This document shows positions 4,905 to 37,681 of a stretch of 64,000 nt of DNA, piece after piece (the stretch's first letter is position 1; every line of letters starts with the position of its first letter). This DNA comes from a virus (Duplodnaviria > Caudoviricetes): positions 20,442 to 84,441 of the IMG/VR virus record IMGVR_UViG_3300030744_000156; one strand, 5' to 3'. The translations under genes were made by a program, and so were the position numbers. Below the pieces are notes generated by a model, which saw nothing but the letters and a program-made list of their open reading frames with translations, was not told where the DNA came from and did not search any database.

Positions 4905-6061
4905 GCGCTGCTCCTGGTGGTGCGGTACGCGGTGCGGGCCAGGTACTGGCGGACGCGCTCGGCGCGGTGGTTGCGGAAGAACTGGGCTTTCCACTGCTGG
5001 TGCGCGGGCGTGCCGTAGTCGATGCCGTCGGGCGGGGCGGGCAGGGTCACGAGTGCCTTGCCGAGGACCGCGTCGAGTTCGGCGTCGGTGGGTTCGCCGG
5101 CGGTGTGACGGTGGGCCTGTTCGAGGTAGGGCTCGTACAGCTCGCCGTTGAGCCAGCCGGACAGGTCCTTGACGAACTGCGGGCGGGCGGCCATGTCGCG
5201 GGCGTAGGCGCGGGCTGCGGCGATGAGCGCGGTGTTGCTGACGCCAGCGGTCATGAGCTTCTGCCACGCCTTGAGTGCCTGCCCCTTGTGGCCGCGGTGC
5301 TTGCCGTCGCGTCGTGCGGCGGCTTCCCAGAGCGCCATGAAGTCAGCCGGGTAGGGGTCTGGGGTCTTCTTCGGCTTGCTCTTGGGTGTGGTGGTGGGCG
5401 GTGTGAGTTCGGGCAGGAGCGTGTCGCTGGACGCGCTCGCGCGCGTTGGTTGGTTCCTGGTGGTTCCTTGGTCGGTTCTCGCGGGCTCTGCGTCCCGGAC
5501 ATCCGGACTTAACGCCCCGGAATCCGGATTTAAAGTCCCGGACACCGCCGCATGTCCGGATTCAACGCCCTGGATGTCCGGCCTGTGTGCCCCGGAATCG
5601 GGCGCGTGTCCGGGATTCTGCGTCCGGACATCCGGACTCTGAGTACCGGACAGCGAGTCAGTGTCCGGACGCAACGCCCCGGACGCGCGAGAGGTCTTCT
5701 TGCGCCTGCGGTCACGGTCGCGGTGATCCTGAACCTCAGCGTCGATCGCTTCCCGATCCGACACTGGACGCACCAGCTCCGTCTTCAGCGCCCACTCGGT
5801 AACCCCGTCGCCGCGCACCCCAACCGACTCGATCAACCCGCCAGCAGCGAGCCTGCCCAGCGCCCGCTGAACGGTCTTCATGTCCAGTCCAGTCGTGTAC
5901 CGCAACAGCGCCAGCGACGGATGCGCCCTCGGCGGCGAGCTCGCGTCAGCGTGCTCAGCGACCGCGGTCAGCACAAACCTGGCGGTGGCGTCGAACTTGC
6001 CGGCCGCGGTGCGCAACATCGGCGCGCGGTGAAGGGCCCACTGAACGGCCTGCCAGCTCAC
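4901..6061 (-). CDS. Phage replication initiator (N-terminal wHTH, iteron-containing linker, C-terminal helicase-loader-like domain)
   Basis: HTH-like ARFVLTAVAEHAD...TVQRALGRLAAGGLI; F..LW..; WLNGELYE; directly upstream of DnaB. Confidence 0.8.
   Translation of the reverse strand: MSWQAVQWALHRAPMLRTAAGKFDATARFVLTAVAEHADASSPPRAHPSLALLRYTTGLDMKTVQRALGRLAAGGLIESVGVRGDGVTEWALKTELVRPVSDREAIDAEVQDHRDRDRRRKKTSRASGALRPDTDSLSGTQSPDVRTQNPGHAPDSGAHRPDIQGVESGHAAVSGTLNPDSGALSPDVRDAEPARTDQGTTRNQPTRASASSDTLLPELTPPTTTPKSKPKKTPDPYPADFMALWEAAARRDGKHRGHKGQALKAWQKLMTAGVSNTALIAAARAYARDMAARPQFVKDLSGWLNGELYEPYLEQAHRHTAGEPTDAELDAVLGKALVTLPAPPDGIDYGTPAHQQWKAQFFRNHRAERVRQYLARTAYRTTRSSA
5488..5684. repeat. Iteron-like cluster / probable phage origin inside the rep gene
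   Basis: About 12 CCGGA(C) copies; near-duplicated CTGCGTC(C)CGGACATCCGGACT at 5488 and 5618; short ATTTAAA patch. Confidence 0.7.
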
Positions 6062-13738: not shown

Positions 13739-14191
13739 TTGCCGGAGCACGTAACAGGCATCACCCGGCCGGTCGATGAGCGGCGCGTGCACCACATTCC
13801 GCCGCTCCTCCACTTGCTCGACACACTGCTCGGTCACGCGCAGGACGTCACCATCCGCCGTGGCTTCCCCGACGTTGGGCTCGCCGAAGTCGACTTCGCC
13901 GCCCGACTCATCACCCTCGGACACGGCCTGACTCTCGGCCAGACGCACGTAGCGCTCGCGCACGAACTGTTCCACCTTCTCCGCGGCCCCGCCCTGATAG
14001 GCCGAGAGCAAGAGGAAGAGGTGGCGGTGCACACAGAAGTCGCGCGGCTGCTTGTCCCCAGGCATGAGCTGCCTGCCATCCTGCATGGTGCCAACCCCAC
14101 CGAGATTGCCGAACGCCTCGTAATCGATCGGCACACCGCGCGCCTCGCTCTCGATCTCGCGCGCGCGGAGGATGCGACAGGAGCCGCCTGA
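13739..14191 (+). CDS. ImmA/IrrE-family metallopeptidase (antirepressor); start uncertain
   Basis: ALAHELFH (HExxH) plus downstream EE; between repressor and integrase. Confidence 0.85.
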   Translation: MPEHVTGITRPVDERRVHHIPPLLHLLDTLLGHAQDVTIRRGFPDVGLAEVDFAARLITLGHGLTLGQTHVALAHELFHLLRGPALIGREQEEEVAVHTEVARLLVPRHELPAILHGANPTEIAERLVIDRHTARLALDLARAEDATGAA

Positions 14192-15774
14192 TGGGCTACG
14201 CGGAGAAACGCACCGGCAAAGACGGCCCGTACTACCGAGCCCGATACAAGATCGCCCCTGGCAGATACGGCACCGTCACCGATCCCGCAGGCGCAACGAT
14301 CAGGTACCGCACGAAACGCGACGCCGAAAAAGCAGCGAACGACGAAGAAGCCAAGGTCCGCGCCGGCACCTGGCGCGACGTCGCCACCAGCAAGACGCCG
14401 TTCATCAACTACGCGTCACGTTGGTACTCGGCACAAGACCTGGCCCTGTCGACGATGGAGAGCTACAAGTCCAGCCTCGAGGTGCACCTGCTGCCGTTCT
14501 TCGGAGAGATGGAGCTCGGCGCGATCACCGCGCTCGACATCGCCGAGTGGGAGAAGGCGGAGCGGGCGGCCGGCTACAAGCCGGGCAGCATCGGGGGCTG
14601 GCGACGCACCCTTCACCTGGTCCTCGCGGACGCCGTCGACGACGAGCTGATCCCCTCGAACCCGGCGACGAAACGCCGGGGCCGCGGCAAGCGGGCGGGC
14701 CGCACGCCCGACCGCGGTCCGGAGAAGACCATCACCGACCCGCTCGGCGCGCTGCTGCTCGCGGAGCGGACCGCACTGCTGGCCGGCCGCGACGACGAGT
14801 TCGTTGCGACGGTCCTGCTCTTCTACACCGGAATGCGGTGGGGCGAGCTCGTCGGTCTCGAGACGGAGTTCGCGCGGCTGCGGAGCCTCCGGATCGAGTG
14901 GCAGCTGTATCAGCTCAGCTCAAGCGAGTTGCACCGCTGCCCGCCCAAGGACGACTCGTACCGCACGGTCGATACTCCGGCGTGGTTGTCCAGGCTGGTG
15001 TCCGACCACATCTCCCGCACCGCGCCGAGCCCATGCCCCTGTCACGGCCGGACATACGTGTTCCAGGGCTTGGGTGCGGCGAACGGCGCGGCACATCGTC
15101 CTGGCGCGAAACTCGTCGACGTCGCGCGCCGTGCGGGAGTGTCGACCGGCACCGTGTCGAACGTGCTCAACCACCCGGAGCGGGTCGCCGACGACACACT
15201 GCAGCGCGTGCAGGACGCGATCGCCGAGCTCGGCTTCATCCGCGGCACGAGCGGCGGGGAGACGGCCGCGCACTGGCGGCGCAACGGGTTCGCCACGTGG
15301 CTGTTCCAGCCCGCGGCCACCGGCTGGTACCCGAAGAAGTCTCCGCACGACGCCCACCCCGTGCCGGTGATCGGCGAGCCGTGGCCCGGGGTGCCGGCCC
15401 GCGGACGCAACGCCGCTGGACGCGCCACCGCATCCTGGCTTCCCATCGCCAGCGGCCTCACCCCGCACGGGATGCGGCACAGCCACAAGACCCGGATGCT
15501 CGGGCTCGGCACGCCGACGAAGCTGATGGACGATCGTCTCGGGCACCTCGATGGCTCGATCCAGGGCCGCTACTCCCACGTGACCCAGGAGATGCGCGAC
15601 CGACTGCTTGAGGGGCTGACCGCGGAGTGGGAGGCGTCGCTGGACGCACGGCTCGCGATGAGCCCGCGGTCGCCGGTCGGTGTGCTTGACGAGTTGCTGC
15701 GTGCACGTGCCCGCAAGGTCAGCGAGAGCGTCCGGGACGAGGTGCAGTGGGGGATTCGCGGGGTGGCCCGATAG
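14191..15774 (+). CDS. int: Tyrosine integrase with inserted LacI-type HTH
   Basis: YTGMRWGE, HGMRH, RLGH, GRYSH catalytic motifs; KLVDVARRAGVSTGTVSNVLN at about 15109-15243. Confidence 0.95.
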   Translation: MGYAEKRTGKDGPYYRARYKIAPGRYGTVTDPAGATIRYRTKRDAEKAANDEEAKVRAGTWRDVATSKTPFINYASRWYSAQDLALSTMESYKSSLEVHLLPFFGEMELGAITALDIAEWEKAERAAGYKPGSIGGWRRTLHLVLADAVDDELIPSNPATKRRGRGKRAGRTPDRGPEKTITDPLGALLLAERTALLAGRDDEFVATVLLFYTGMRWGELVGLETEFARLRSLRIEWQLYQLSSSELHRCPPKDDSYRTVDTPAWLSRLVSDHISRTAPSPCPCHGRTYVFQGLGAANGAAHRPGAKLVDVARRAGVSTGTVSNVLNHPERVADDTLQRVQDAIAELGFIRGTSGGETAAHWRRNGFATWLFQPAATGWYPKKSPHDAHPVPVIGEPWPGVPARGRNAAGRATASWLPIASGLTPHGMRHSHKTRMLGLGTPTKLMDDRLGHLDGSIQGRYSHVTQEMRDRLLEGLTAEWEASLDARLAMSPRSPVGVLDELLRARARKVSESVRDEVQWGIRGVAR

Positions 15775-19667: not shown

Positions 19668-19734
19668 CTGTCAACTAGGTTCCGAACATGGTTGACAGTA
19701 CGTGGGCGCCGTGGCACTGTCAACCATGTTCCGA
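19668..19734. promoter_or_regulatory. Divergent promoter with three CTGTCAAC-type operator half-sites
   Basis: CTGTCAAC 19668, GTTGACAG 19691, CTGTCAAC 19717; 16-bp perfect inverted repeat 19684-19699 / 19716-19731. Confidence 0.7.
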
Positions 19735-19775
19735 CCCAAGGTCCAACCACAGTTGCGAACGGAGGTGATGGCACG

Positions 19776-20024
19776 ATGCTGCTCGTGGCACGAGACGAGA
19801 TTCCCAAGCTCAGGGCGCTACGCGACGAGCTCGACGCGGCGGCGAAAGAAGCCGCCGAGATCGTCGACCCGCCGAAGAAGGCCCTCATGGAGGCCATCGT
19901 GGAGGCGTTTGCCGCCGGCGAGCCCGACTCGCGGATTGCCCGCTCGGTGGATTGGTCGCGGGAGTACGTCGGGCGGTTGCGCAAGAAGCTGGCGTCGAAG
20001 CAACGAGATGACGAGGAGGACTGA
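19776..20024 (+). CDS. Small protein with C-terminal HTH (probable regulator)
   Basis: RBS GGAGG; GEPDSRIARSVDWSREYVGRLRKK. Confidence 0.7.
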   Translation: MLLVARDEIPKLRALRDELDAAAKEAAEIVDPPKKALMEAIVEAFAAGEPDSRIARSVDWSREYVGRLRKKLASKQRDDEED

Positions 20025-20025
20025 C

Positions 20026-20538
20026 GTGGGCGACGTGCCAAGACCACTGCTTCTGCTCGACGTCGACGGCCCTCTCAACCCGTTCCGTGCGACGAAGCCC
20101 GAGGGCTACACGATGCACAAGCTCCCAACCGCTGGCAGCTCGTTCAACGTGTGGCTCAACCACGGCCACGGCGCCATGCTGCTGGCGTTCGCGGAGCGGC
20201 ACAGTTTCAAGCTGGTGTGGTGCACGACGTGGGAGCACGACGCGAACAAGCACATCGGCCCGCACATTGGCCTGCCCGAGCTGCCGGTCATCGAGTTCGG
20301 GTTTACCGCCACCGAGTGGAAGTTCAACGCCGTCCTCGACTACGCCGCCGGCAGGCCGCTGGCGTGGCTGGACGACGACTTCGAGCTGTTCGACGCCGAG
20401 CAGCAGTGGTTCGAGCAGCAGCGCGGTGATGCGCCGACGCTGCTGCACCTCGTGAGCCCGAAAGTCGGGATCACGACCGAAGACCTCGACGCCGTCGCAG
20501 CCTGGGCGGCTCAACTCAAGGGAGCAGATGCCGCGTGA
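20026..20538 (+). CDS. HAD-superfamily phosphatase (Swiss-Army-knife RNA-repair-like type)
   Basis: LLLDVDGPLN, VWCTTWE, AWLDDD. Confidence 0.85.
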   Translation: MGDVPRPLLLLDVDGPLNPFRATKPEGYTMHKLPTAGSSFNVWLNHGHGAMLLAFAERHSFKLVWCTTWEHDANKHIGPHIGLPELPVIEFGFTATEWKFNAVLDYAAGRPLAWLDDDFELFDAEQQWFEQQRGDAPTLLHLVSPKVGITTEDLDAVAAWAAQLKGADAA

Positions 20539-20816
20539 GCGAGCAGAACGTGGACGACGAAGAGAACGGCACGCAGGACCTGGTGCTCGACTACGACTTC
20601 ACCGACTACGTCGAGGGCACAGTGTCGATCCGGCACGGCGAGGGTTCGATTACCTTGCCTGTCGGCGCCGCAAGCGCACTGCTCGAAAAGGCCGCGCGAG
20701 AGATCAGCGAGGAGCTGACCGAGCGATCGTGTCCCGGCAGGCCGGCCACCGGTTCCTCGGCTACCTCCACGGCCAGCGTCAACGCATGCTCAACGGCAAC
20801 GTCCACGCCCGCGTGA
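20535..20816 (+). CDS. Hypothetical protein, C-terminus probably altered by a deletion
   Basis: Acidic protein-like first 63 aa then S/T/A-rich out-of-frame tail overlapping the next frame. Confidence 0.5.
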   Translation: MSEQNVDDEENGTQDLVLDYDFTDYVEGTVSIRHGEGSITLPVGAASALLEKAAREISEELTERSCPGRPATGSSATSTASVNACSTATSTPA

Positions 20817-21142
20817 ACCGGCCCGAGCTCGTCGAGAAGTACGGCCATGACACGAAGTACGCCGCGCACATGGTCCGCCTCGCCGTGCAGGGCGTAGAGC
20901 TGCTGGAGACCGGGCGGATGACCCTGCCCATGTCGGAGCCGTGGCGTACCTGGATCCGGGACCTGCGGCAGGGCAAGCACACCGAGCAGGAAGCGATCGA
21001 AGCCGCTGACGAGCTGGAAGCACGGCTCAAGGTGCTCACCGAGACCGCGGACCTGCCGGCACGTCCGGACACGGCGCGGGCGAACAGGTGGCTGATCGAG
21101 ACCTACCAGCGGGCTTGGGTGCACGGGAGGTGGGTGCCGTGA
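20729..21142 (+). pseudogene. C-terminal half of a phage nucleotidyltransferase (Nuc-transf/pol-beta RNA-repair type); catalytic N-half absent
   Basis: RFLGYLHGQRQRML...RPELVEKYGHDTKYAAHMVRL..QGVELLETG; no GS..DxD upstream in any frame. Confidence 0.65.
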
Positions 21143-21438
21143 GTTCGACTGCTGTCGAGATGCTCGACGCCGCCCAGTGCCGGATGCGCGCGGCTGTCGC
21201 CGCTCAGGAACCGGCTGAGGTCGTGCACCCCCTGATGCTGGACGTCGCGGCCGTGTTCGACGCGCTCGGGTTCGACTCGACGAGTGTCCGCCGTACCGCA
21301 GACATGCTCGTGCCGATGTTCGGCCTGCACGCCCAGCACGAGCGGGAACGGCTGCCGTGGTGGCGGCGGCGCAAGTACCAGGCGCCGAACTACGCGGCGC
21401 GGGTCCAGGCCTACAGAGAAGGTGTGCACCGTGGATGA
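21139..21438 (+). CDS. Hypothetical protein
   Basis: GTGA-coupled; LPWWRR motif. Confidence 0.6.
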   Translation: MSSTAVEMLDAAQCRMRAAVAAQEPAEVVHPLMLDVAAVFDALGFDSTSVRRTADMLVPMFGLHAQHERERLPWWRRRKYQAPNYAARVQAYREGVHRG

Positions 21439-21811
21439 GACGTTGAAGGACGCGGCCGAGCACTCCGGCATCGCGGCAGCCAAGAGGTGGCTCACCGCCC
21501 TCACCGAGGCAATGGAAGCCGAGGCTGTGCCGGGTGACACGCGGCGCCGGATCGTGAACCGGGTTCTGTTCGGCGATCCGGACGGCGACGTGTTCGAGAA
21601 GGCCTCACTGGAGGTTGAGGCGAGGCTGGCCAGGATGGACCCCGCCAGGGTGCTCGGGTTCCGCCAGGACGAGTGGAGTAAGCGGGCCGAGTCGATGCGC
21701 CGTGCACTGGAAGACACCGGCCGGGGGCTGACCCGCGTCCTCGACGCTGCTGGGTTCGAGAATCTGGAAGTCCGCTGGGACGAGCACCCCGAGGAGACCG
21801 ACCGTGGGTAA
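21431..21811 (+). CDS. Hypothetical protein
   Basis: RBS GAAGG; overlaps neighbours. Confidence 0.6.
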   Translation: MDETLKDAAEHSGIAAAKRWLTALTEAMEAEAVPGDTRRRIVNRVLFGDPDGDVFEKASLEVEARLARMDPARVLGFRQDEWSKRAESMRRALEDTGRGLTRVLDAAGFENLEVRWDEHPEETDRG

Positions 21812-22085
21812 CCAGATCGTCAAGCAGCCTGACGGCAAGTACGCGATCTTCTCCAGCATCACCGACACCATCGTGTTCTGGGACGCCACCTACGACGAGA
21901 TCGTGCAGTTCTTCGTCGACCGGGCCATCGAGGACACCAAACGTTCAGTGCAGAAGGTCCTCGACCACGTCGCCGCTGACGAACCGCGCAAGGCCTACTA
22001 CCAGTTCACGATGACCTGGGAGGAAGCCCTTAGGGATGACCGTGACGGCGGCGGCGAAGTGTGGAAGGAGTACAGCCGTGGATGA
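21804..22085 (+). CDS. Conserved phage hypothetical protein
   Basis: IVKQPDGKYAIFSSITD motif; RBS GAGGAG. Confidence 0.7.
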   Translation: MGNQIVKQPDGKYAIFSSITDTIVFWDATYDEIVQFFVDRAIEDTKRSVQKVLDHVAADEPRKAYYQFTMTWEEALRDDRDGGGEVWKEYSRG

Positions 22086-22530
22086 CATCCCCATACGACC
22101 CGAGGCGGTCGCTGCCGCACGCTGGTGGGTCGACACCATCACCGCCCCGCCCAAGAACGACGAGTACGGCGATGCAGCGCTGAACGCAGGCATGGCGCGC
22201 TCACGCCTCCAGCCTGCGCCCACCACCTGGACACCCGAGCAGGTCGAGGCGTTCCGCGTTGAGCTCGAACGACGCATCGATGCCCACTGCGCCGAGACGT
22301 CGTGGCGCCCGGACGAGCCGAACTACGGCTCCGGGGTGCGGGTGATGATCTGCGACTACGGCCCAGACCCCGTGCTGAAGGACGCCGCCGAGGCAGTCGG
22401 CCTGCGGTTGCAGAACCGCGACACGCCAGCGAAGACGTTCGTGTGGGTGAACCCAGGCGAGGTCAAGGCACAGCTGGGCTACTCGGCACCGCGCGAGGTC
22501 GTGTGGAGCGAGGAGTACGGCCGTGGCTGA
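22078..22530 (+). CDS. Conserved phage hypothetical protein
   Basis: AARWW...DYGPDPVLKDAA...PAKT...GYSAP. Confidence 0.7.
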   Translation: MDDIPIRPEAVAAARWWVDTITAPPKNDEYGDAALNAGMARSRLQPAPTTWTPEQVEAFRVELERRIDAHCAETSWRPDEPNYGSGVRVMICDYGPDPVLKDAAEAVGLRLQNRDTPAKTFVWVNPGEVKAQLGYSAPREVVWSEEYGRG

Positions 22531-22981
22531 CGACTGGATGACCGACGACCACAAGGCCGCCGCCCTGGAGGGCTTCCGGGGAAACCCGGTGGCGGTCGCG
22601 TTCGCCCTGCAGAGGGCCGAGGAAGAACGCGAGGCACGCAAGGCTCAGGCCATGGTGGCGTGGGTGCGGGAGCAGATCGCCCACAATCGGGGCATCGCAG
22701 AAGCCGCCCACGCCGACGACTACCAGTCCATCGAGGACGAGTCGGACGCGATGGAAAGGTTCCGCCGCAGGTTCAACACGGAAGCCGTGCTTGAGCAGTG
22801 CACGGCGCACGCGGCGATCATCGACCGCTACGCGGTGGCCATGGGCATACCGGAGAACAGGATCTCCAGCTTCGTGCGCGGCCAGGACGACGGCTACCGA
22901 CAGGGCTGTCTCGACGCGATCCGAGACATCGCTGTGTCGATGGCAGACCGGCCCGGCTTCCGGGAGGAGTGGCGTCCATGA
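22523..22981 (+). CDS. DUF6221-like protein
   Basis: C-terminal ADRPGFREEWRP signature. Confidence 0.7.
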   Translation: MADDWMTDDHKAAALEGFRGNPVAVAFALQRAEEEREARKAQAMVAWVREQIAHNRGIAEAAHADDYQSIEDESDAMERFRRRFNTEAVLEQCTAHAAIIDRYAVAMGIPENRISSFVRGQDDGYRQGCLDAIRDIAVSMADRPGFREEWRP

Positions 22982-23915: not shown

Positions 23916-23985
23916 CTCCCGGTGCGAAGTCCAACGGCTACTTCCTTGGGTGAAACGACGCCGTCGGACGACCTGATCTCGGGAG
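23916..23985 (+). ncRNA. Short Y-RNA-like element (unit 1, no tRNA domain)
   Basis: Closing stem CTCCCGG/TCGGGAG; GGTGCGAAG resembles the Y RNA GGUCCGAxG strand; shares CCCGGTGCG, CTACTTCC and TGATCTCGGG with unit 2. Confidence 0.55.
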
Positions 23986-24000
23986 CCCACAACTCCACAC

Positions 24001-24131
24001 GTGCCCGGTGCGCAGGCGAGGCCTACTTCCAACTGCTAATTGGGTGGTCCGGGTTCGAATCCCGGCGGCCTTTCGGGGCTGTGGTGTAACGGCAGCACGC
24101 TATGTCGGCTTCACCGTCTTGATCTCGGGCC
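24001..24131 (+). ncRNA. YrlA-like Y RNA with circularly permuted tRNA domain (unit 2)
   Basis: CGAGGC/GTCTTG Ro-type helix; T arm CCGGG-TTCGAAT-CCCGG; acceptor closed by TTCG loop; D arm GTG-TAACGGCAG-CAC; immediately upstream of Ro60. Confidence 0.8.
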
Positions 24132-24173
24132 CGTGTGGGGCTGTAGCTCCCCTTCCGCTGAAGGGTTGAGCCC

Positions 24174-25787
24174 TTGTCGAAGTTCAACACCACCAAGACC
24201 CGCCCGGCCGTGTCGAGCCCGGTCACCAGCGAGTCCACCCCATCCGCCCGCACCTACGAGGGCGGCGCCGGCTACGCCCGCGACACGAAGTCCGAGCTGT
24301 TCCTGCTCGCCGTCACTCAGTTCGCCGAGGCAACGTTCTACGAGTCCGGCCAGGACCGCGACAGCCGCTACGCCCAGCTCATCCACGCCGCTGCACTCGC
24401 TGACCCGGAGTGGACGGCACGCCTGCTCAGCTGGCTCCGCAACGACGCCAACATGCGCACCGCATCCCTCGTCGGCGCCGCCGAGTACGTCAAGGCCCGC
24501 CTCGCCGCAGGAGCGGACACGGGCGTCTCCAACCGGGCCGTTATCGACTCCGTGCTGCAGCGCGCCGACGAGCCCGCCGAACTCCTCGCCTACTGGACCA
24601 GCCGCCACGGCCGCAGCATCCCGAAGCCCATCAAGCGTGGTGTCGCCGACGCCGCTCGTCGGCTCTACGACGAGCGATCCCTGATCAAGTGGGACTCCGA
24701 CGCCCGCGGCTACCGCTTCGGCGACGTGCTCAACCTCGTCCACCCGGCCCCGCGCGCCGACTGGCAGGCCGACCTGTTCACCTACGCCCTCGACCGCCGC
24801 TACGACCGGCCGACGAGCGACTGGCCCACCCTGCCGATCCTGCAGCGCCGCCAGGGCCTGATGGCGACCGAGCTCGACGACCGCCGCGCGCTCTTCGAGG
24901 ACCCTGCGCGCGCCGCCATCTGCCTCCGCGAGGCGGGGATGACGTGGGAATCGGTCGCCGGCTGGCTGCAGGCGCCGATGACAAAGGAGGTGTGGGAGGC
25001 GCTCGCACCGTCGATGGGTTACATGGCGCTGCTGCGCAACCTGCGCAACTTCGACGAGGCCGGCGTCTCCGACGAGGTCGCTGCCATCGTCGCGGCGAAG
25101 CTCTCCGACCCCGGCCAGGTCGCACGCTCCCGCCAGCTGCCGATGCGGTTCCTCTCCGCCTACCGCGCCGCGCCCTCCCTGCGATGGGGCCACGCCCTGG
25201 ATCAGGCGCTCACCCACTCGCTGGCCAACATCCCGCAGTTGTCTGGCCGCACCCTTGTGCTCGTCGACACCTCGAGCTCCATGGACGCCGGGTTCTCGAA
25301 GGACGGCACCCTGATGCGCTGGGATGCCGCTGCGGTGTTCGGTATCGCTCTCGGTGCCCGATGCGAGTACGCCGACGTCGTGTCGTTCTCCTCCAACCAG
25401 CGCTACTGGAACGACCCGGCCGGTGCGAACACCAAGCAGTTCAAGCTCCAGGCCGGCGAGTCCCTGCTCCGCTCGGTCGACCGATGGAAGAACGGCGGCT
25501 ACTTCCTCGGCGGCGGCACCGACACCGTCGGCGCCATCCAGCGCCACCTGCGCCCTGGCTTCCACGACCGGCTCGTCATCGTCACCGACGAGCAGGCGGA
25601 ACGCGGCGACGTCGGCCGCACCGTGCCCGCAGACCTGCCGCTGTACACGTGGAACCTCGCTGGCTACCGCCACGGCCACAGCGCCTCAGTCCACAGCAAC
25701 CGCCACACCTTCGGCGGCCTCACCGATCAGGCCTTCCGGATGATTCCCCTGCTCGAAGCCGGAAAGAACGCCGCCTGGCCGTTCTGA
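24174..25787 (+). CDS. Ro60/TROVE domain RNA-binding protein with vWA domain
   Basis: TYEGGAGY, ELFLLAV, DESFY-like EATFYE, RNDANMRT, YMALLRNLRN, LVLVDTSSSM MIDAS, VIVTDEQ. Confidence 0.95.
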   Translation: MSKFNTTKTRPAVSSPVTSESTPSARTYEGGAGYARDTKSELFLLAVTQFAEATFYESGQDRDSRYAQLIHAAALADPEWTARLLSWLRNDANMRTASLVGAAEYVKARLAAGADTGVSNRAVIDSVLQRADEPAELLAYWTSRHGRSIPKPIKRGVADAARRLYDERSLIKWDSDARGYRFGDVLNLVHPAPRADWQADLFTYALDRRYDRPTSDWPTLPILQRRQGLMATELDDRRALFEDPARAAICLREAGMTWESVAGWLQAPMTKEVWEALAPSMGYMALLRNLRNFDEAGVSDEVAAIVAAKLSDPGQVARSRQLPMRFLSAYRAAPSLRWGHALDQALTHSLANIPQLSGRTLVLVDTSSSMDAGFSKDGTLMRWDAAAVFGIALGARCEYADVVSFSSNQRYWNDPAGANTKQFKLQAGESLLRSVDRWKNGGYFLGGGTDTVGAIQRHLRPGFHDRLVIVTDEQAERGDVGRTVPADLPLYTWNLAGYRHGHSASVHSNRHTFGGLTDQAFRMIPLLEAGKNAAWPF

Positions 25788-30961: not shown

Positions 30962-32365
30962 GTGGGCGTGTTCGCAGCGGCAGCCGCAGCGCTGCGGCCA
31001 CGCGCCTACGTGACCGATCCGATCGGCTGGGTGAAGGGCAAGCTGTCGCAGATCGTCTGGTCGAAGCAGCGGCAGATCCTTGAGTCCATTCGCGACAACC
31101 GCAAGACCGCGGTCCGCTCCTGCCACGGCGTCGGCAAAAGCTGGACCGCGGCACTCGCCGCCAGCTGGTGGCTCGACACCCACGAGCCCGGCACGGCATT
31201 CGTCGTGACGACGGCGCCGACGTTTCGGCAGGTTCGGGCGATCCTGTGGCGGTACATCCGCCGCGTCCACAAGGTCGGCAAGCTGCCTGGCCGGGTCAAC
31301 CAGACCGAGTGGCATCTCGGCGACGAGCTCGTCGCGTTCGGTTCGAAGCCCGCGGACCACGACGAGTCCGCCTTCCAGGGCATTCACGCGCAGTTCGTGC
31401 TGGTCATCGTCGATGAGGCGTGTGGCGTGCCTGAGCAACTGTGGGTGGCGGCGGACGCGCTCACCACGAACACGGACTGTCGGATCCTCGCGATCGGCAA
31501 CCCGGACAACCCCGCCTCGCACTTCCGGAAGGTGTGCGCTGGTGGTTCAGGCTGGAACGTCATCGGCATCAGCGCCTTCGACTCGCCGAACCTGACTGGC
31601 GAGGAGGTGCCCAACGAGGTCGCGCAGGCCCTGGTGTCGCGGGAATGGGTGGAGGAGAAGAAACGCGAGTGGGGCGAGGACAACCCGCTGTACCTGGCGA
31701 AGGTGCTCGGCGAGTTCGCTTCGGACCACCCGAACCAGGTGGTGCGGCAGTCCGACGTGTACGTGTGCCGGCAGCCTGCCGAGACGCCACTGGCCGACGA
31801 GGATCTCCTGCCGGTCGAGCTCGGCGTCGACGTCGGCGGCGGCGGGGACGAGACAGTGATCCGGGAACGCCGCGGACGGCTGGTCGGCCGGGAGTGGCGG
31901 GCGCTCACCGACAGGCCCGAGAAGATCGCGCCGATGGTGTTGGCCGCGATCAAGGAATCCGGCGCGACCGACGTGAAGGTCGACTCCATCGGCATCGGGT
32001 TCGGCGTCATCGGCGAGCTCCGCAACATGGCCGGCAACAAGCTGCACAGTGCGCACATCACCGCAGTGAACGTGGCGGAGAAGTCGTCGGAGCCGGACAA
32101 GTTCATCAACCTGCGCGCAGAGCTGTGGTGGCAGCTCGGCCGCGGCCTGTCTGAGCGGCATGGCTGGGACCTGTCGACGATGGACAACGCGGATGCCACG
32201 GTCGCCCAGTTGCTGGAGCCCCGGTGGGAGATCGATGCGCAGGGCCGGATCAAGGTCGAGAAGAAGGACGATGTGCGAGCGCGGCTGGGGCGCAGCCCAG
32301 ACAACGCTGATGCGCTGCTGCTGGCGTTCTACCGCGGCGAACGGACACGCCTGCGGTGGATCTAG
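30962..32365 (+). CDS. terL: Terminase large subunit
   Basis: SCHGVGKS Walker A, VIVDEA Walker B, GNP, LGVDVGGGGDE nuclease motif, SPDNADA. Confidence 0.95.
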   Translation: MGVFAAAAAALRPRAYVTDPIGWVKGKLSQIVWSKQRQILESIRDNRKTAVRSCHGVGKSWTAALAASWWLDTHEPGTAFVVTTAPTFRQVRAILWRYIRRVHKVGKLPGRVNQTEWHLGDELVAFGSKPADHDESAFQGIHAQFVLVIVDEACGVPEQLWVAADALTTNTDCRILAIGNPDNPASHFRKVCAGGSGWNVIGISAFDSPNLTGEEVPNEVAQALVSREWVEEKKREWGEDNPLYLAKVLGEFASDHPNQVVRQSDVYVCRQPAETPLADEDLLPVELGVDVGGGGDETVIRERRGRLVGREWRALTDRPEKIAPMVLAAIKESGATDVKVDSIGIGFGVIGELRNMAGNKLHSAHITAVNVAEKSSEPDKFINLRAELWWQLGRGLSERHGWDLSTMDNADATVAQLLEPRWEIDAQGRIKVEKKDDVRARLGRSPDNADALLLAFYRGERTRLRWI

Positions 32366-33320: not shown

Positions 33321-33821
33321 GTGGACTTGTTGCCGTACGCCGAGTACGCCGCCTCGCTCAACAGGAAGCGCACGAGCGCAGGTGTGCTCTACCGCGACCG
33401 CCGCGGTCGTGTGCTTCTCGTCAAGCCGACCTACAAGTCCGGCTGGGACATCCCAGGTGGAGCGGTCTCGGAGGGAGAACCACCGTGGCGCGCCGCTCGC
33501 CGCGAGGTCCAAGAAGAGATCGGATTCGACCTGCAGCTCGGCTCCCTCCTCGTCATCGACTACATCCCCACCGAGCCCCCCATGCCGGAAGGTCTCGCGT
33601 TCGTCTTTGACGGCGGCCTGATCACCGACGAGGAGGTCTCGGCCATCGAGCTGCGTGACCCGGAGATCGGCACAGTGCGTCTGAGCACCATCGACGAAAC
33701 TCGTACCCTGATGAAGCCTCGGCTGGCCCGCCGGATCGAGGCCGCGCAACATGCCGCGCTCAACGGCGTTCTGACGTTCTGCGAGTCCGGGAAACCGATC
33801 ATCGAACCCCGGCACAGCTGA
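33321..33821 (+). CDS. NUDIX hydrolase
   Basis: Nudix box GGAVSEGEPPWRAARREVQEEIG. Confidence 0.93.
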   Translation: MDLLPYAEYAASLNRKRTSAGVLYRDRRGRVLLVKPTYKSGWDIPGGAVSEGEPPWRAARREVQEEIGFDLQLGSLLVIDYIPTEPPMPEGLAFVFDGGLITDEEVSAIELRDPEIGTVRLSTIDETRTLMKPRLARRIEAAQHAALNGVLTFCESGKPIIEPRHS

Positions 33822-35065: not shown

Positions 35066-35187
35066 TGGTGACGAGGACGGGATTCGAACCCGCGTCTCCT
35101 ACTAGCCCCCTGCCTGACTGGCCGTCCGGACGTGCCAGCAGGCAGTACGTGGGGTGTTCAGGATTCTGGCCGCTGAACTACCTCGCC
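35066..35187 (-). ncRNA. tRNA-like RNA (122 nt) with acceptor, D and T arms and encoded CCA, anticodon arm replaced by a long hairpin
   Basis: GGCGAGG/CCTCGTC-A-CCA; GTTC-AGCGGCCA-GAAT; GCGGG-TTCGAAT-CCCGT; -10-like TAGCCT 7 nt upstream. Confidence 0.75.
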
Positions 35188-35293
35188 GTAACCGAGGCTA
35201 GCTGACAGCGCGCGAGTGGCCAGCCACCCACAGCACCCTGAACCGACGATTCAACGGTCACAAACCGGTCTCACCGACGAATCGCAGGCGTGT

Positions 35294-35338
35294 CGTCCGG
35301 TCCTGCGCTTGTTTAAACCGGACGAAGCGATCTACCTT
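35294..35338 (+). promoter_or_regulatory. Late-operon operator/promoter CGTCCGGT-N15-ACCGGACG-N8-TACCTT
   Basis: Same architecture as the sites at 25878 and 12960-13004. Confidence 0.7.
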
Positions 35339-35406
35339 GTGTCCATGCAGGACAGCGCCGCACACCCCACCGCTACCCAAGCGGCGCTCCCGGCATGCCA
35401 GGACTG

Positions 35407-35446
35407 GGACGCCCAACCCCCGCGTGGGGTGTGGGGTTGGGCGTCC
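35407..35446. other. 14-bp perfect hairpin in the late-operon leader
   Basis: GGACGCCCAACCCC / GGGGTTGGGCGTCC. Confidence 0.6.
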
Positions 35447-35462: not shown

Positions 35463-35642
35463 ATGAACCTTAAAAGGCTCAAGGGCGCACGCAGCGCCGC
35501 ACTCGTTCTTGGCGGCCTCGGCTGCATCGTCGCCGGAATCTGGGTCATCGCCGCCGTCATCTTCGGCGCCATCATCGGCGCCGGCGCAGGCCTCATCGCC
35601 ACCGGTTTCGCGTTCCTGCTCACCGAGCTGGTGAGCGAATGA
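35463..35642 (+). CDS. Small two-TM membrane protein preceding portal
   Basis: Hydrophobic; stop overlaps portal ATG. Confidence 0.65.
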   Translation: MNLKRLKGARSAALVLGGLGCIVAGIWVIAAVIFGAIIGAGAGLIATGFAFLLTELVSE

Positions 35643-37681
35643 GAAACCCACTTAGCCTCGTCTTCAACCAGGCGCCCGTCCCGCTCGCGACTCGCCGCAG
35701 CAGCGGTGGCGCGATGCTCAGCGCCGGCGGCACCGCAGGCGGCTTCGAAGCCCAGCTCCGCTCCTACACCTCGAACGGCACGGTCAACGGCATCGTCAGC
35801 CGCACCAGCACCGCCGTCTCCCAGTCCCAGTGGCACCTGTACCGCAAAGCCAAGTCCGGCAAGCCAGAAGACCGCGAGGAGATCACCAGCCACGCGGCCC
35901 TCGACCTGTGGAACAAGCCCAACCCGTTCATGCCCCAACAGGAGTTCCTCGAGGTCGTCCAGCAGCACATCGACCTGGCCGGCGAATCCCCGTGGGTGAT
36001 CGCCTACGACAAGCGGGCCAAGAACCTGCCGCTTGAGCTGTGGCCCGTCCGCCCGGACCGCATGGAACCCGACCCGGATCCCGACAAGTTCCTGCTCGGC
36101 TGGAACTACCGCAGCCCCGAGAACGGCCAGCTCATCGGGTTGGGCTTGCGTGAGGTCATCCACCTCCGCACCCCCAACCCGCTCGACCCCTACCGCGGCT
36201 GCTCCCCCATCGCCACCCTGCTCACCACCCTCGGACGCACCAAAGCCGCACAGGAGTGGAACAAGAACTTCTTCGTCAACTCGGCCCGGCCCGGCGGCAT
36301 CATCCAGGTCCCCAACCGGCTGAACGACGACGAGTTTGACGAGCTCCGCATGCGCTGGAACGAGCAGCACCGCGGCGTCGGCAACGCCCACAAGGTCGCG
36401 GTGCTCGAGCACGGCGAGTGGAAAGAGCTCGGCTTCAGCATCAAAGACCTTCAGGTCACCGAGCTACGCGAGTCTGACCGGGACGAGATCCTCGAGGCCT
36501 ACGGCTTCCCGCGCTCCATGCTCGGCATCGACGAGTCGGCGAACAAGGCCGTGGCCGCCACCGCCGAGTACATCTTCGCCAAGTGGTTGACGGTGCCCAG
36601 GTTGCAGCGCATCCGAGGAGCCCTCAACCACGACCTCCTGCCCTTGTACGGCGAGACCGCGCGGGACCTTGAGTTCGACTTCGACAGCCCCGTACCCCAG
36701 GACGAGGCCGCCGAAAACGATGCCCGCGACTCGAAGGTCAACGCCTACAAGGTCCTGGTCGTCGACTGCGGTGTGGACCCGAAGGACGCGGCCGAGGTCG
36801 TCGGCCTGCCGGTCATGGAGATCCGTGAACGCGTCGAAGCGCCGGCCCGCGAGAAGACCACGCCCGCCGAGAAGGTGGATGACGCGCAGTGGTCGCGGAT
36901 CGTCGCCAACCTCGTCCGCAATGCCGCCGAGGATGAGGCACCCGAGGTGGACCTGTCCGCCGTCGAGGAAGCCTGGACTGCTGCGCTGGTTGCACTGCTC
37001 GCGCAGTGGACGTCCGTCGTCGCCGACTGGATCACCCAGCTCCTCGCCCAGATCCGCGGTGTGTTCGAGTCCGGCACCCGCTCCGGTCTTGCTGATCTGA
37101 GCGTCTCGACGGCGACCGCGACCGGCGTGTTGCAGGACGCTCTGCTGCGGCTCGGTGAGACCTCTGCCCGTCAGGTCGTCCGCGAGGCAGCCGAGCAGGA
37201 CGTCGACCTGTCCGCCGTCTACCCCTCACGGGACGACTACGCCGACGACGCCAGCCTGACCGTCGACCTGCTCGCCCGCGGACTCGAAACCTCGGCGGCC
37301 CGCGAAGCTCAGCGTCTCGCCGGACCTGAGCCGGACGTGACCGCAGTCGTTGACGGGGTACGGGAACACCTTGAGGCCCTGACTGACGCCGAGCCGCGCA
37401 GGGTGCTGGGCGGGGCGCTGCACGGCGCAACGAACGCGGCACGAGCAGCCACGCTCGCAGCCGGCCCGCTCGGCGCCATCTACGCCAGCGAAATGAACGA
37501 CCACAACCGATGCAAGCCCTGCGCCGACATCGACGGCCGCTGGATCTGCAACACCGACGACCTCACCGCGCTCTACAAGCTCTACCCGCTCACCGGCTAC
37601 GTCGACTGCCTCGGCGGGGTTCGCTGCCGCGGCACTTTCCACGGCGTGTGGCGACCGCAGACCGGCAAGGAGACCTCATGA
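35639..37681 (+). CDS. HK97-type portal protein fused to a MuF/gp7-like head morphogenesis domain
   Basis: KPNPFM...LAGESPW...ELWPVRPDRM...NSARPGGII; C-terminal ASEMNDHNRCKPC...CLGGVRCRG. Confidence 0.9.
   Translation: MRNPLSLVFNQAPVPLATRRSSGGAMLSAGGTAGGFEAQLRSYTSNGTVNGIVSRTSTAVSQSQWHLYRKAKSGKPEDREEITSHAALDLWNKPNPFMPQQEFLEVVQQHIDLAGESPWVIAYDKRAKNLPLELWPVRPDRMEPDPDPDKFLLGWNYRSPENGQLIGLGLREVIHLRTPNPLDPYRGCSPIATLLTTLGRTKAAQEWNKNFFVNSARPGGIIQVPNRLNDDEFDELRMRWNEQHRGVGNAHKVAVLEHGEWKELGFSIKDLQVTELRESDRDEILEAYGFPRSMLGIDESANKAVAATAEYIFAKWLTVPRLQRIRGALNHDLLPLYGETARDLEFDFDSPVPQDEAAENDARDSKVNAYKVLVVDCGVDPKDAAEVVGLPVMEIRERVEAPAREKTTPAEKVDDAQWSRIVANLVRNAAEDEAPEVDLSAVEEAWTAALVALLAQWTSVVADWITQLLAQIRGVFESGTRSGLADLSVSTATATGVLQDALLRLGETSARQVVREAAEQDVDLSAVYPSRDDYADDASLTVDLLARGLETSAAREAQRLAGPEPDVTAVVDGVREHLEALTDAEPRRVLGGALHGATNAARAATLAAGPLGAIYASEMNDHNRCKPCADIDGRWICNTDDLTALYKLYPLTGYVDCLGGVRCRGTFHGVWRPQTGKETS

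Follow-up and report, generated by a model that had tools for sequence, protein, structure and literature searches.

What does a phage gene encode when it has retained a complete tRNA apart from the codon-reading portion? The question is raised by a 64,000-nt stretch (the window, taken here as the whole of the DNA analysed), which comes from a virus record of 84.4 kb in IMG/VR that has terminal repeats and belongs to the Caudoviricetes. Its minus strand carries, at positions 35066-35187, a 122-nt tRNA-shaped RNA gene with an encoded ACCA end at 35066-35069. Phage tRNA genes are usually seen as codon-usage helpers, as replacements for cleaved host tRNAs or as complements for tRNA genes disrupted by integration (PMC10865867). 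An earlier note on the window had placed a tRNA mimic unable to decode at the same coordinates, and the comparison with related phages supports that interpretation and speaks against random decay; the link with a Y-like RNA and the splicing that the note had also considered found no such support. Its further ideas, that the RNA might titrate a synthetase, influence Rel sensing or prime a reaction, are speculative. Judged from sequence, the comparison shows a conserved, structured, non-decoding and tRNA-derived gene in a non-coding RNA island of temperate Pseudonocardiaceae phages. That this gene makes a functional non-decoding RNA is, in our view, probable.

Architecture of the tRNA-like RNA

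The tRNA model of Rfam (RF00005, gathering cut-off 29 bits) aligns over the full length of the gene at 39.5 bits (E 6e-7), 15 of the model positions being taken by 62 nt. The gene is missed by an Rfam scan with default filters and by ARAGORN, which makes no standard tRNA call here. The cloverleaf body, whose three arms had been recognized before, has a 7-bp acceptor stem, a D arm and a T arm with GTTCRANYC (Table 1). U8 and A9 follow the 5' strand of the acceptor stem, the variable region consists of 4 nt (AGAC), and the discriminator A precedes the encoded CCA. A canonical tRNA, such as the tRNA-Met(CAU) of the related phage locus L196, has the same 7-bp acceptor stem, D arm, T arm, Levitt pair, tertiary nucleotides, discriminator A and CCA. 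The element differs from it in having no anticodon loop and no codon pairing, and a closed helix of ~65 nt occupies the slot of the 17-nt anticodon arm. From its base upward this hairpin is built of 4 bp, a 5-nt bulge ACGUA on the 5' side, 7 bp, 5 bp, an A bulge and 3 bp. The minimum-energy fold (-56.3 kcal/mol, z-score -2.9 against shuffled sequences) consists of the tRNA frame and one long hairpin, and gives exactly the helices proposed earlier: CCCC/GGGG, CUGCCUG/CAGGCAG, CUGGC/GCCAG and CGU-CCGG-ACG. The hairpin occurs once in the window, with no repeated mobile copies within this stretch. Seven homologues share the architecture, and the element is confirmed as a real structured tRNA-like gene beyond chance.

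No 7-nt loop with U33 and an anticodon on a 5-bp stem can be drawn in the window copy by folding, Rfam alignment or ARAGORN, in agreement with the earlier note. The only solution that ARAGORN offers in intron mode is a forced tRNA-Gly in which an intron of 33 nt is placed at position 30/31. A precursor spliced to a decoding tRNA would make sense of such forced solutions, and of the 5-bp anticodon stem that one group of relatives, the L199-type members described below, retains around a 52-nt insert. This reading is barely tenable, however. In none of the members can a 7-nt loop carrying U33 and an anticodon be restored from the ends of the insert, an anticodon stem is wholly missing from the window copy, and no tRNA splicing endonuclease is known in bacteria. 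A tRNA with a group I intron was also rejected: such introns measure ~200 nt or more with their catalytic core, far above the 52-65 nt of the inserts, and no Rfam intron family matched at E<=10.

A family of homologous elements in related phages

Assemblies in Logan, JGI, ENA and NCBI contain homologues of the portal protein encoded near the gene, at 63-87% identity. Some of these belong to prophages of Lentzea cavernae, Lentzea sp. and Actinosynnema, so the phage group is temperate and infects Pseudonocardiaceae. Eleven portal-homologue loci were retrieved for comparison of the layout, which is the same in all of them: regulator genes on the terminase side, a non-coding island of 0.9-1.3 kb (sometimes larger), and a small open reading frame (ORF) with the portal gene. 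The regulator pair varies, being either a NUDIX protein with a 405-aa helix-turn-helix (HTH) protein or an HTH-DUF5753 protein with a DUF397 protein. At the portal side of the island the relatives have a conserved block. A clear homologue of the element is also carried by one metagenome contig, L193.

A homologue search with a covariance model (R1) built from five members finds eight long-form members at 59-129 bits, that is, the window copy (129 bits) and seven relatives (L199, 126.6 bits; L234, 125.3; L202, 121.9; L236, 111.3; L193, 102.8; L198, 89.9; L237, 58.7). They share the slot upstream of portal genes that are 73-81% identical to that of the window; contig L193 is too short to show its portal gene. 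The acceptor 5' strand GGCGAGG is common to all eight members and to the tRNA-Met(CAU) of L196, whose whole acceptor stem is identical to that of the element. Ordinary tRNAs also lie in the islands of L197, Glu(UUC), and L200, Trp(CCA), and further odd RNAs bearing a T arm are found in relatives' islands.

Exact-pattern scans of IMG/VR for the element and its hairpin gave no match, and a looser pattern for long tRNA frames yielded numerous long genes of tRNA-like form that are unrelated to the element, and no kin of it. The portal relatives in IMG/VR (66 loci, <=58% identity) carry no such element, the INPHARED phage collection gave T-arm matches only, and a scan of genome contigs gave two chance matches in coding DNA.

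Two further identities were rejected. The element is not a captured host tRNA, its chassis being found in 0 of 401 Pseudonocardiaceae genomes; among the matches listed for 151 genomes the long form is absent, and the best match reaches 57.8 bits over 76 nt. This 151-genome survey includes six unpublished genomes (G130, G063, G005, G039, G124 and G088), and no positive claim uses them. It is not a tRNA-derived phage attachment site (attP) either: the L202 copy lies intact in the middle of a prophage on a 2.6-Mb Lentzea contig and is not split into attL and attR.

Conservation of the body and divergence of the arm

The tRNA body of the window copy and that of L199 are identical at 56 of 56 positions, while the flanks (flanking genes and upstream block) are 77.8% and 81.2% identical. 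At such flank divergence the chance of full identity is 0.8^56, or ~4e-6 by our arithmetic. None of the eight members has lost U8, A14, G15:C48, the D-loop GG, A21 or G53-UUCRANY-C61. Twelve sequences were aligned, four of which are matches that do not belong to the long-form family (three of these four are ordinary tRNAs). In this alignment 96-100% of cells in the helices of the frame are paired, and both sides have changed in 12 of 16 pairs. These comparisons show a tRNA body under strong purifying selection.

The arms fall into five sequence types across the eight members. In the four L199-type arms 98.8% of cells pair, and five pairs have changed on both sides, compared with 0-1 in slid controls. 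A whole 5-bp helix of the arm is rewritten in L236 (ACGAG/CUCGU to GUGGA/UCCAC), and the base helix CCCC/GGGG of the window copy becomes CCCU/AGGG in L193. Similarity between arms is detectable for the window and L193 (z-score 5.3) and for the window and L199 (3.4), whereas the arms of L199 and L193 cannot be aligned (0). The length is kept quite constant: six members have a middle segment of 63-65 nt, and the remaining two have one of 49 nt. A 5'-side bulge of 4-5 nt near the base of the arm (ACGUA, GUGAA or GCGA) recurs in three arm types and six members. Six members also have an A bulge followed by the apex GUCCGGAC, and L193 has GCCAUGGC instead. The arm is shown in this way to be a helix that evolves fast and keeps its pairing and its length.

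A dead tRNA gene, with an anticodon loop broken by insertion or expansion of a palindrome and no function left, would also be unable to decode. Such an origin fits an arm that is a near-perfect DNA palindrome through its centre, and relatives do carry ordinary tRNAs in the same island. The identity of the body against flanks ~20% diverged, the full set of tertiary nucleotides in every member, and the compensatory changes at kept arm length, which argue for selection, already disfavour this reading, and we consider it very unlikely. The earlier note had anticipated that a decaying pseudo-tRNA would have homologues without covariation; the eight members with compensatory changes are the opposite.

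The folding of the two strands bears both on decay and on the idea that the arm acts as DNA. In six of eight members the insert in tRNA sense folds 2.7-9.4 kcal/mol better than the antisense strand because of G-U pairs, and this asymmetry points to an RNA, not to a symmetric DNA site. A protein-binding palindrome or two-way terminator inside tRNA-derived sequence could be imagined, since the core of the apex GTCCGGAC recurs in an array of ~16 (T/C)CCGGA(C/T) repeats at ~5480-5690, the hairpin lies 49-97 nt past the stop codon of the convergent regulator gene, and the apex of L193, which differs, is still palindromic (GCCATGGC). However, GTCCGGAC occurs 5 times in the window against 4.05 expected, which is no enrichment, and the regulator operon of L202 is equipped with a terminator of its own, more than 200 nt from the element. 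A function at the DNA level also leaves the conserved tRNA body unexplained, and we regard it as highly improbable.

A possible role for a tRNA without a codon reader

We propose, with somewhat less than even confidence, that the gene encodes a stable non-decoding RNA which derives from a phage tRNA with a Met(CAU)-type chassis, stays uncharged and occupies a protein that reads the tRNA body or acceptor end. The RNA would be transcribed on its own, probably also in the lysogen; its minus-strand, moron-like position suggests expression there, and the gene points away from the late genes. With its intact elbow and acceptor end it should be a substrate for tRNA maturation and modification enzymes and so be stable: host enzymes would mature and stabilize it (RNase P or Z, trimming of the 3' end or addition of CCA, and modification of the elbow). 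YrlA RNAs are likewise processed and modified by tRNA enzymes and are stable (PMC4201824). The RNA would remain uncharged and off the ribosome, from which the long arm would keep it. Methionyl-tRNA synthetase depends on the anticodon, so that an RNA with this chassis is probably uncharged; of the two states that the earlier note had allowed, charging appears unlikely. The protein occupied could be, for example, a tRNA-directed toxin or defence enzyme of the host or of a rival, and the sealed arm would remove the loop that can be cleaved or decoded and set a fixed reach. The fast evolution of the arm suggests conflict.

Several points weigh against this proposal. That the RNA is transcribed, processed and stable we infer from its sequence. 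No partner protein was identified, and the neighbouring genes differ among members, with either of the two regulator pairs. The arm of the window copy is a perfect Watson-Crick palindrome, and both of its strands fold equally well. The covariation comes from few independent events, given eight known members and five arm types. Many tRNA-directed nucleases read the anticodon loop, and the absence of this loop restricts a decoy role to enzymes directed at the tRNA body or acceptor end. The decoy mechanism in itself is possible but rather doubtful.

The proposal can be extended to a natural 'tRNA scaffold', an unlikely picture taken as a whole. The invariant chassis would be a modular plug of a host or rival protein that binds the tRNA body, and the rigid arm, re-tuned at fixed length (63-65 or 49 nt), would measure or block a second site. 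An arms race would drive its divergence. With the other RNAs of the island, the element would form a counter-defence or defence cassette expressed in lysogeny.

The RNA might instead be regulatory or processing RNA similar to the c4 RNA of P1 or the CI RNA of P4, both of which are matured by RNase P. The tRNA body would then be a handle for RNase P or Z, and the arm would carry specificity as an antisense or immunity determinant or as a protein-binding hairpin. Closely related phages with a shared chassis and different arms fit this reading, and the gene adjoins regulator genes in an accessory island with its own putative promoter. The islands of relatives hold rows of several RNAs, in which tRNA-like units could mark the sites of cleavage. 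However, the arm is almost wholly self-paired, so that few of its bases are open to antisense pairing. Complementarity elsewhere in the window is near chance, the best matches being a 14-mer within an ORF and a 13-mer, and the window island has a single gene and needs no punctuation. We consider this alternative distinctly unlikely.

tRNA-like handles are known in mascRNA of MALAT1, in the tRNA-like domain of tmRNA, in the stable 'species 1 and 2' RNAs of the phage T4 tRNA cluster and in engineered tRNA scaffolds. The element resembles them in offering a tRNA body to tRNA enzymes with the anticodon end replaced or absent, and the engineered scaffold, with a hairpin for the anticodon arm, has the same architecture. 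None of them is homologous to the element; mascRNA has no D arm, and tmRNA carries a reading frame and is charged with alanine. No description of this RNA family was found in the literature. A conserved phage gene that keeps all tRNA parts except the codon reader would be a use of the tRNA shape independent of decoding. The invariant chassis, the fast-changing arm of fixed length and the cultured Lentzea lysogen make the binding partner, and protection of the phage or lysogen, testable. The family is also a warning for annotation, as genes of this kind score above the Rfam cut-off for tRNA or carry the label 'tRNA-OTHER'.

Relation to Ro and YrlA-like RNA

The window encodes a Ro (TROVE) protein at 24174-25787 (+), with a YrlA-like RNA directly upstream at 23982-24155 (+). 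The two ends of this RNA form a long stem, and ARAGORN calls its core (24001-24074) 'tRNA-Ser gct'; no Rfam family reaches its gathering score there. The earlier note had taken the element as a complement to this Y-like RNA, for which we find no support. As a second Y-like RNA partnering the phage Ro, the element would topologically be a circular permutation of YrlA with an open acceptor and a closed long helix. Apart from the presence of Ro itself, this idea draws on RNA-repair-type domains (HAD_SAK_2 and BTG) encoded near Ro, on a loose resemblance of the apex GUCCGGA to the Ro-contact motif GGUCCGA (PMC4201824), and on that of the L199-type bulge GCGAACG to GNCGAAN0-1G (PMC4201824). YrlA is indeed similar in being non-decoding, in combining tRNA-like D and T arms and tertiary contacts with a long helix, and in being present in actinophages (PMC4201824).

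Its topology, however, is the opposite. Y RNAs bind Ro through the stem formed by their two ends; in the element the two ends form an open acceptor stem with CCA, and it is the long helix that is closed. The arm of the window copy has no GNCGAA-like bulge; the full motif GNCGAAN0-1G, which in Y RNAs stands near the 5' end (PMC4201824), is absent from the window copy, and the L199-type arms offer no more than a near match. The element is not adjacent to Ro but 9.3 kb away on the opposite strand, and no co-occurrence with Ro is seen in the relatives: 0 of the 120 best Ro homologues are on contigs that match in length those holding other members, and the closest phage Ro has no copy of the element within 10 kb. 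A partnership with Ro is thus decidedly improbable.

The closest phage Ro homologue (83% identity) is encoded on a 51.7-kb contig, L238, which also encodes a weak match to the 5'-3' RNA ligase RLIG1 (L238:13288-13935). Just upstream of Ro in the window, at 19702-22981 (+), the domains encoded are HAD_SAK_2 ('Swiss army knife' RNA repair), BTG and DUF6221, which suggest an RNA-repair or RNA-conflict module. In the Lentzea cavernae prophage (L197:9880-10049 and G001:C24:96865-97053, L203) an ORF with a SAP domain is found downstream of the capsid genes; it apparently runs on into a 599-aa frame with a TROVE match, the two pieces being presumed to share a contig.

Genomic context and putative promoter

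The genome is high in GC and siphophage-like, with integrase, RecT/YqaJ, DnaB, terminase, HK97-type portal, ClpP-like protease and capsid genes. The sequencing runs listed as holding it are DNA runs from soil and rhizosphere with a small share each, and none is an RNA run. The RNA gene lies within a 2.8-kb accessory insert between the genes for the large terminase (30962-32365) and the portal protein (35639-37681). Its contents, in order from the terminase side, are two small ORFs on the minus strand, the NUDIX gene, the XRE-type regulator gene, the RNA gene, ~270 nt of non-coding DNA and the membrane-protein ORF. Apart from generic HTH and NUDIX matches, no match to a nuclease or defence family was found among the island and neighbouring ORFs. 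The features are summarized in Table 1.

Table 1. Coordinates of the tRNA-like RNA gene, its parts and its neighbours in the window
Feature	Position	Strand	Remarks
Whole RNA gene	35066-35187	-	Rfam RF00005 39.5 bits; own covariance model R1 129 bits; minimum-energy fold
Acceptor stem, 5' strand GGCGAGG	35181-35187	-	Pairs with CCUCGUC at 35070-35076; G2-U71 wobble
D arm GUUC-AGCGGCCA-GAAU	35163-35178	-	Has A14, G15, two D-loop G (18/19), A21
5' linker CCUGAACA, D arm to hairpin	35155-35162	-	GAACA kept in L193
Long near-palindromic hairpin replacing the anticodon arm	35106-35154	-	Minimum-energy fold
Hairpin apex GUCCGGAC	35124-35131	-	Apex motif common to L199, L234, L202, L236 and L198
3' linker and variable region CUAGUAGGAGAC	35094-35105	-	C48 is the Levitt partner of G15
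T arm GCGGG-UUCGAAU-CCCGU	35077-35093	-	Rfam tRNA alignment
-10-like TAGCCT	35195-35200	-	7 nt upstream of G1; fits actinobacterial TANNNT pattern
Conserved non-coding block upstream	35201-35446	-	75-83% identical to L193 and L196-L202
Convergent XRE-type HTH regulator, 407 aa	33834-35057	+	Pfam HTH_3, phrog_5823; context, not a demonstrated partner
NUDIX gene	33321-33821	+	Precedes the XRE-type regulator gene
Small membrane-protein ORF and portal gene	35463-37681	+	Phage_portal 1.7e-64; bounds the island; layout same in relatives

The upstream non-coding block holds the palindrome TGTCCTGCATGGACA and a strong hairpin at 35406-35446. The -10-like box, which had been noticed before, stands at the end of this block and is conserved in relatives (TAGCCT in L197 and L202, TACCCT in L199, TAGGCT in L193), where it precedes other RNA genes of the island. 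A scan with the sigma-70 consensus found no promoter or terminator. TAGCCT is a probable promoter of the RNA island, and in the window, where the island is reduced to a single RNA gene, the RNA would start at or near its mature 5' end.

Other tRNA-like RNAs and minor observations

Extra structured RNAs are present in the islands of relatives (L202:2455-3800 (-) and L199:2880-3830 (-), also L197, L198 and L201). One, of ~95-115 nt and ending in GGGGCCAC(C/A)A, has an anticodon-like arm and an odd D region. Another is a tRNA-like RNA of ~150-175 nt with the T arm UCUGG-UUCGAAU-CCAGA, akin to RNAs on the large IMG/VR contigs L054 and L118. A third, of ~330 nt, has a T-arm-like end, GAGGG-UUCGACU-CCCUC, and is not called tmRNA by ARAGORN or Rfam.

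Many unrelated IMG/VR contigs carry tRNA-like genes of 105-135 nt with intact acceptor, D and T arms and long inserts, among them several small families with conserved internal sequence (L087/L094, L027/L099, L030/L042/L067/L071, L018/L021/L076, L026, L057 and L082). Another non-standard tRNA family in actinophages is formed by 86-nt genes of Streptomyces phages, annotated as 'tRNA-OTHER' or unannotated: L002:347-432 and L006:299-384 (JustBecause/Kela and Frankenweenie) and L007:~1452-1535 (Yara). Their tRNA body is normal, their 'anticodon loop' of 17 nt folds into a mini-hairpin, UA-CUGG-NUCANG-CCAG-C, and the genes of JustBecause and Frankenweenie show compensatory differences.

In the window, the dense (T/C)CCGGA(C/T) repeats at ~5480-5690, with the core found in the hairpin apex, lie upstream of a DnaB-like helicase gene and are similar to origin iterons or operators. 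A tyrosine-integrase-like ORF at 14191-15774 (+) has N-terminal SAM-like and C-terminal catalytic matches with a LacI-type HTH match in its middle, which is either an unusual architecture or possibly a miscalled fusion.
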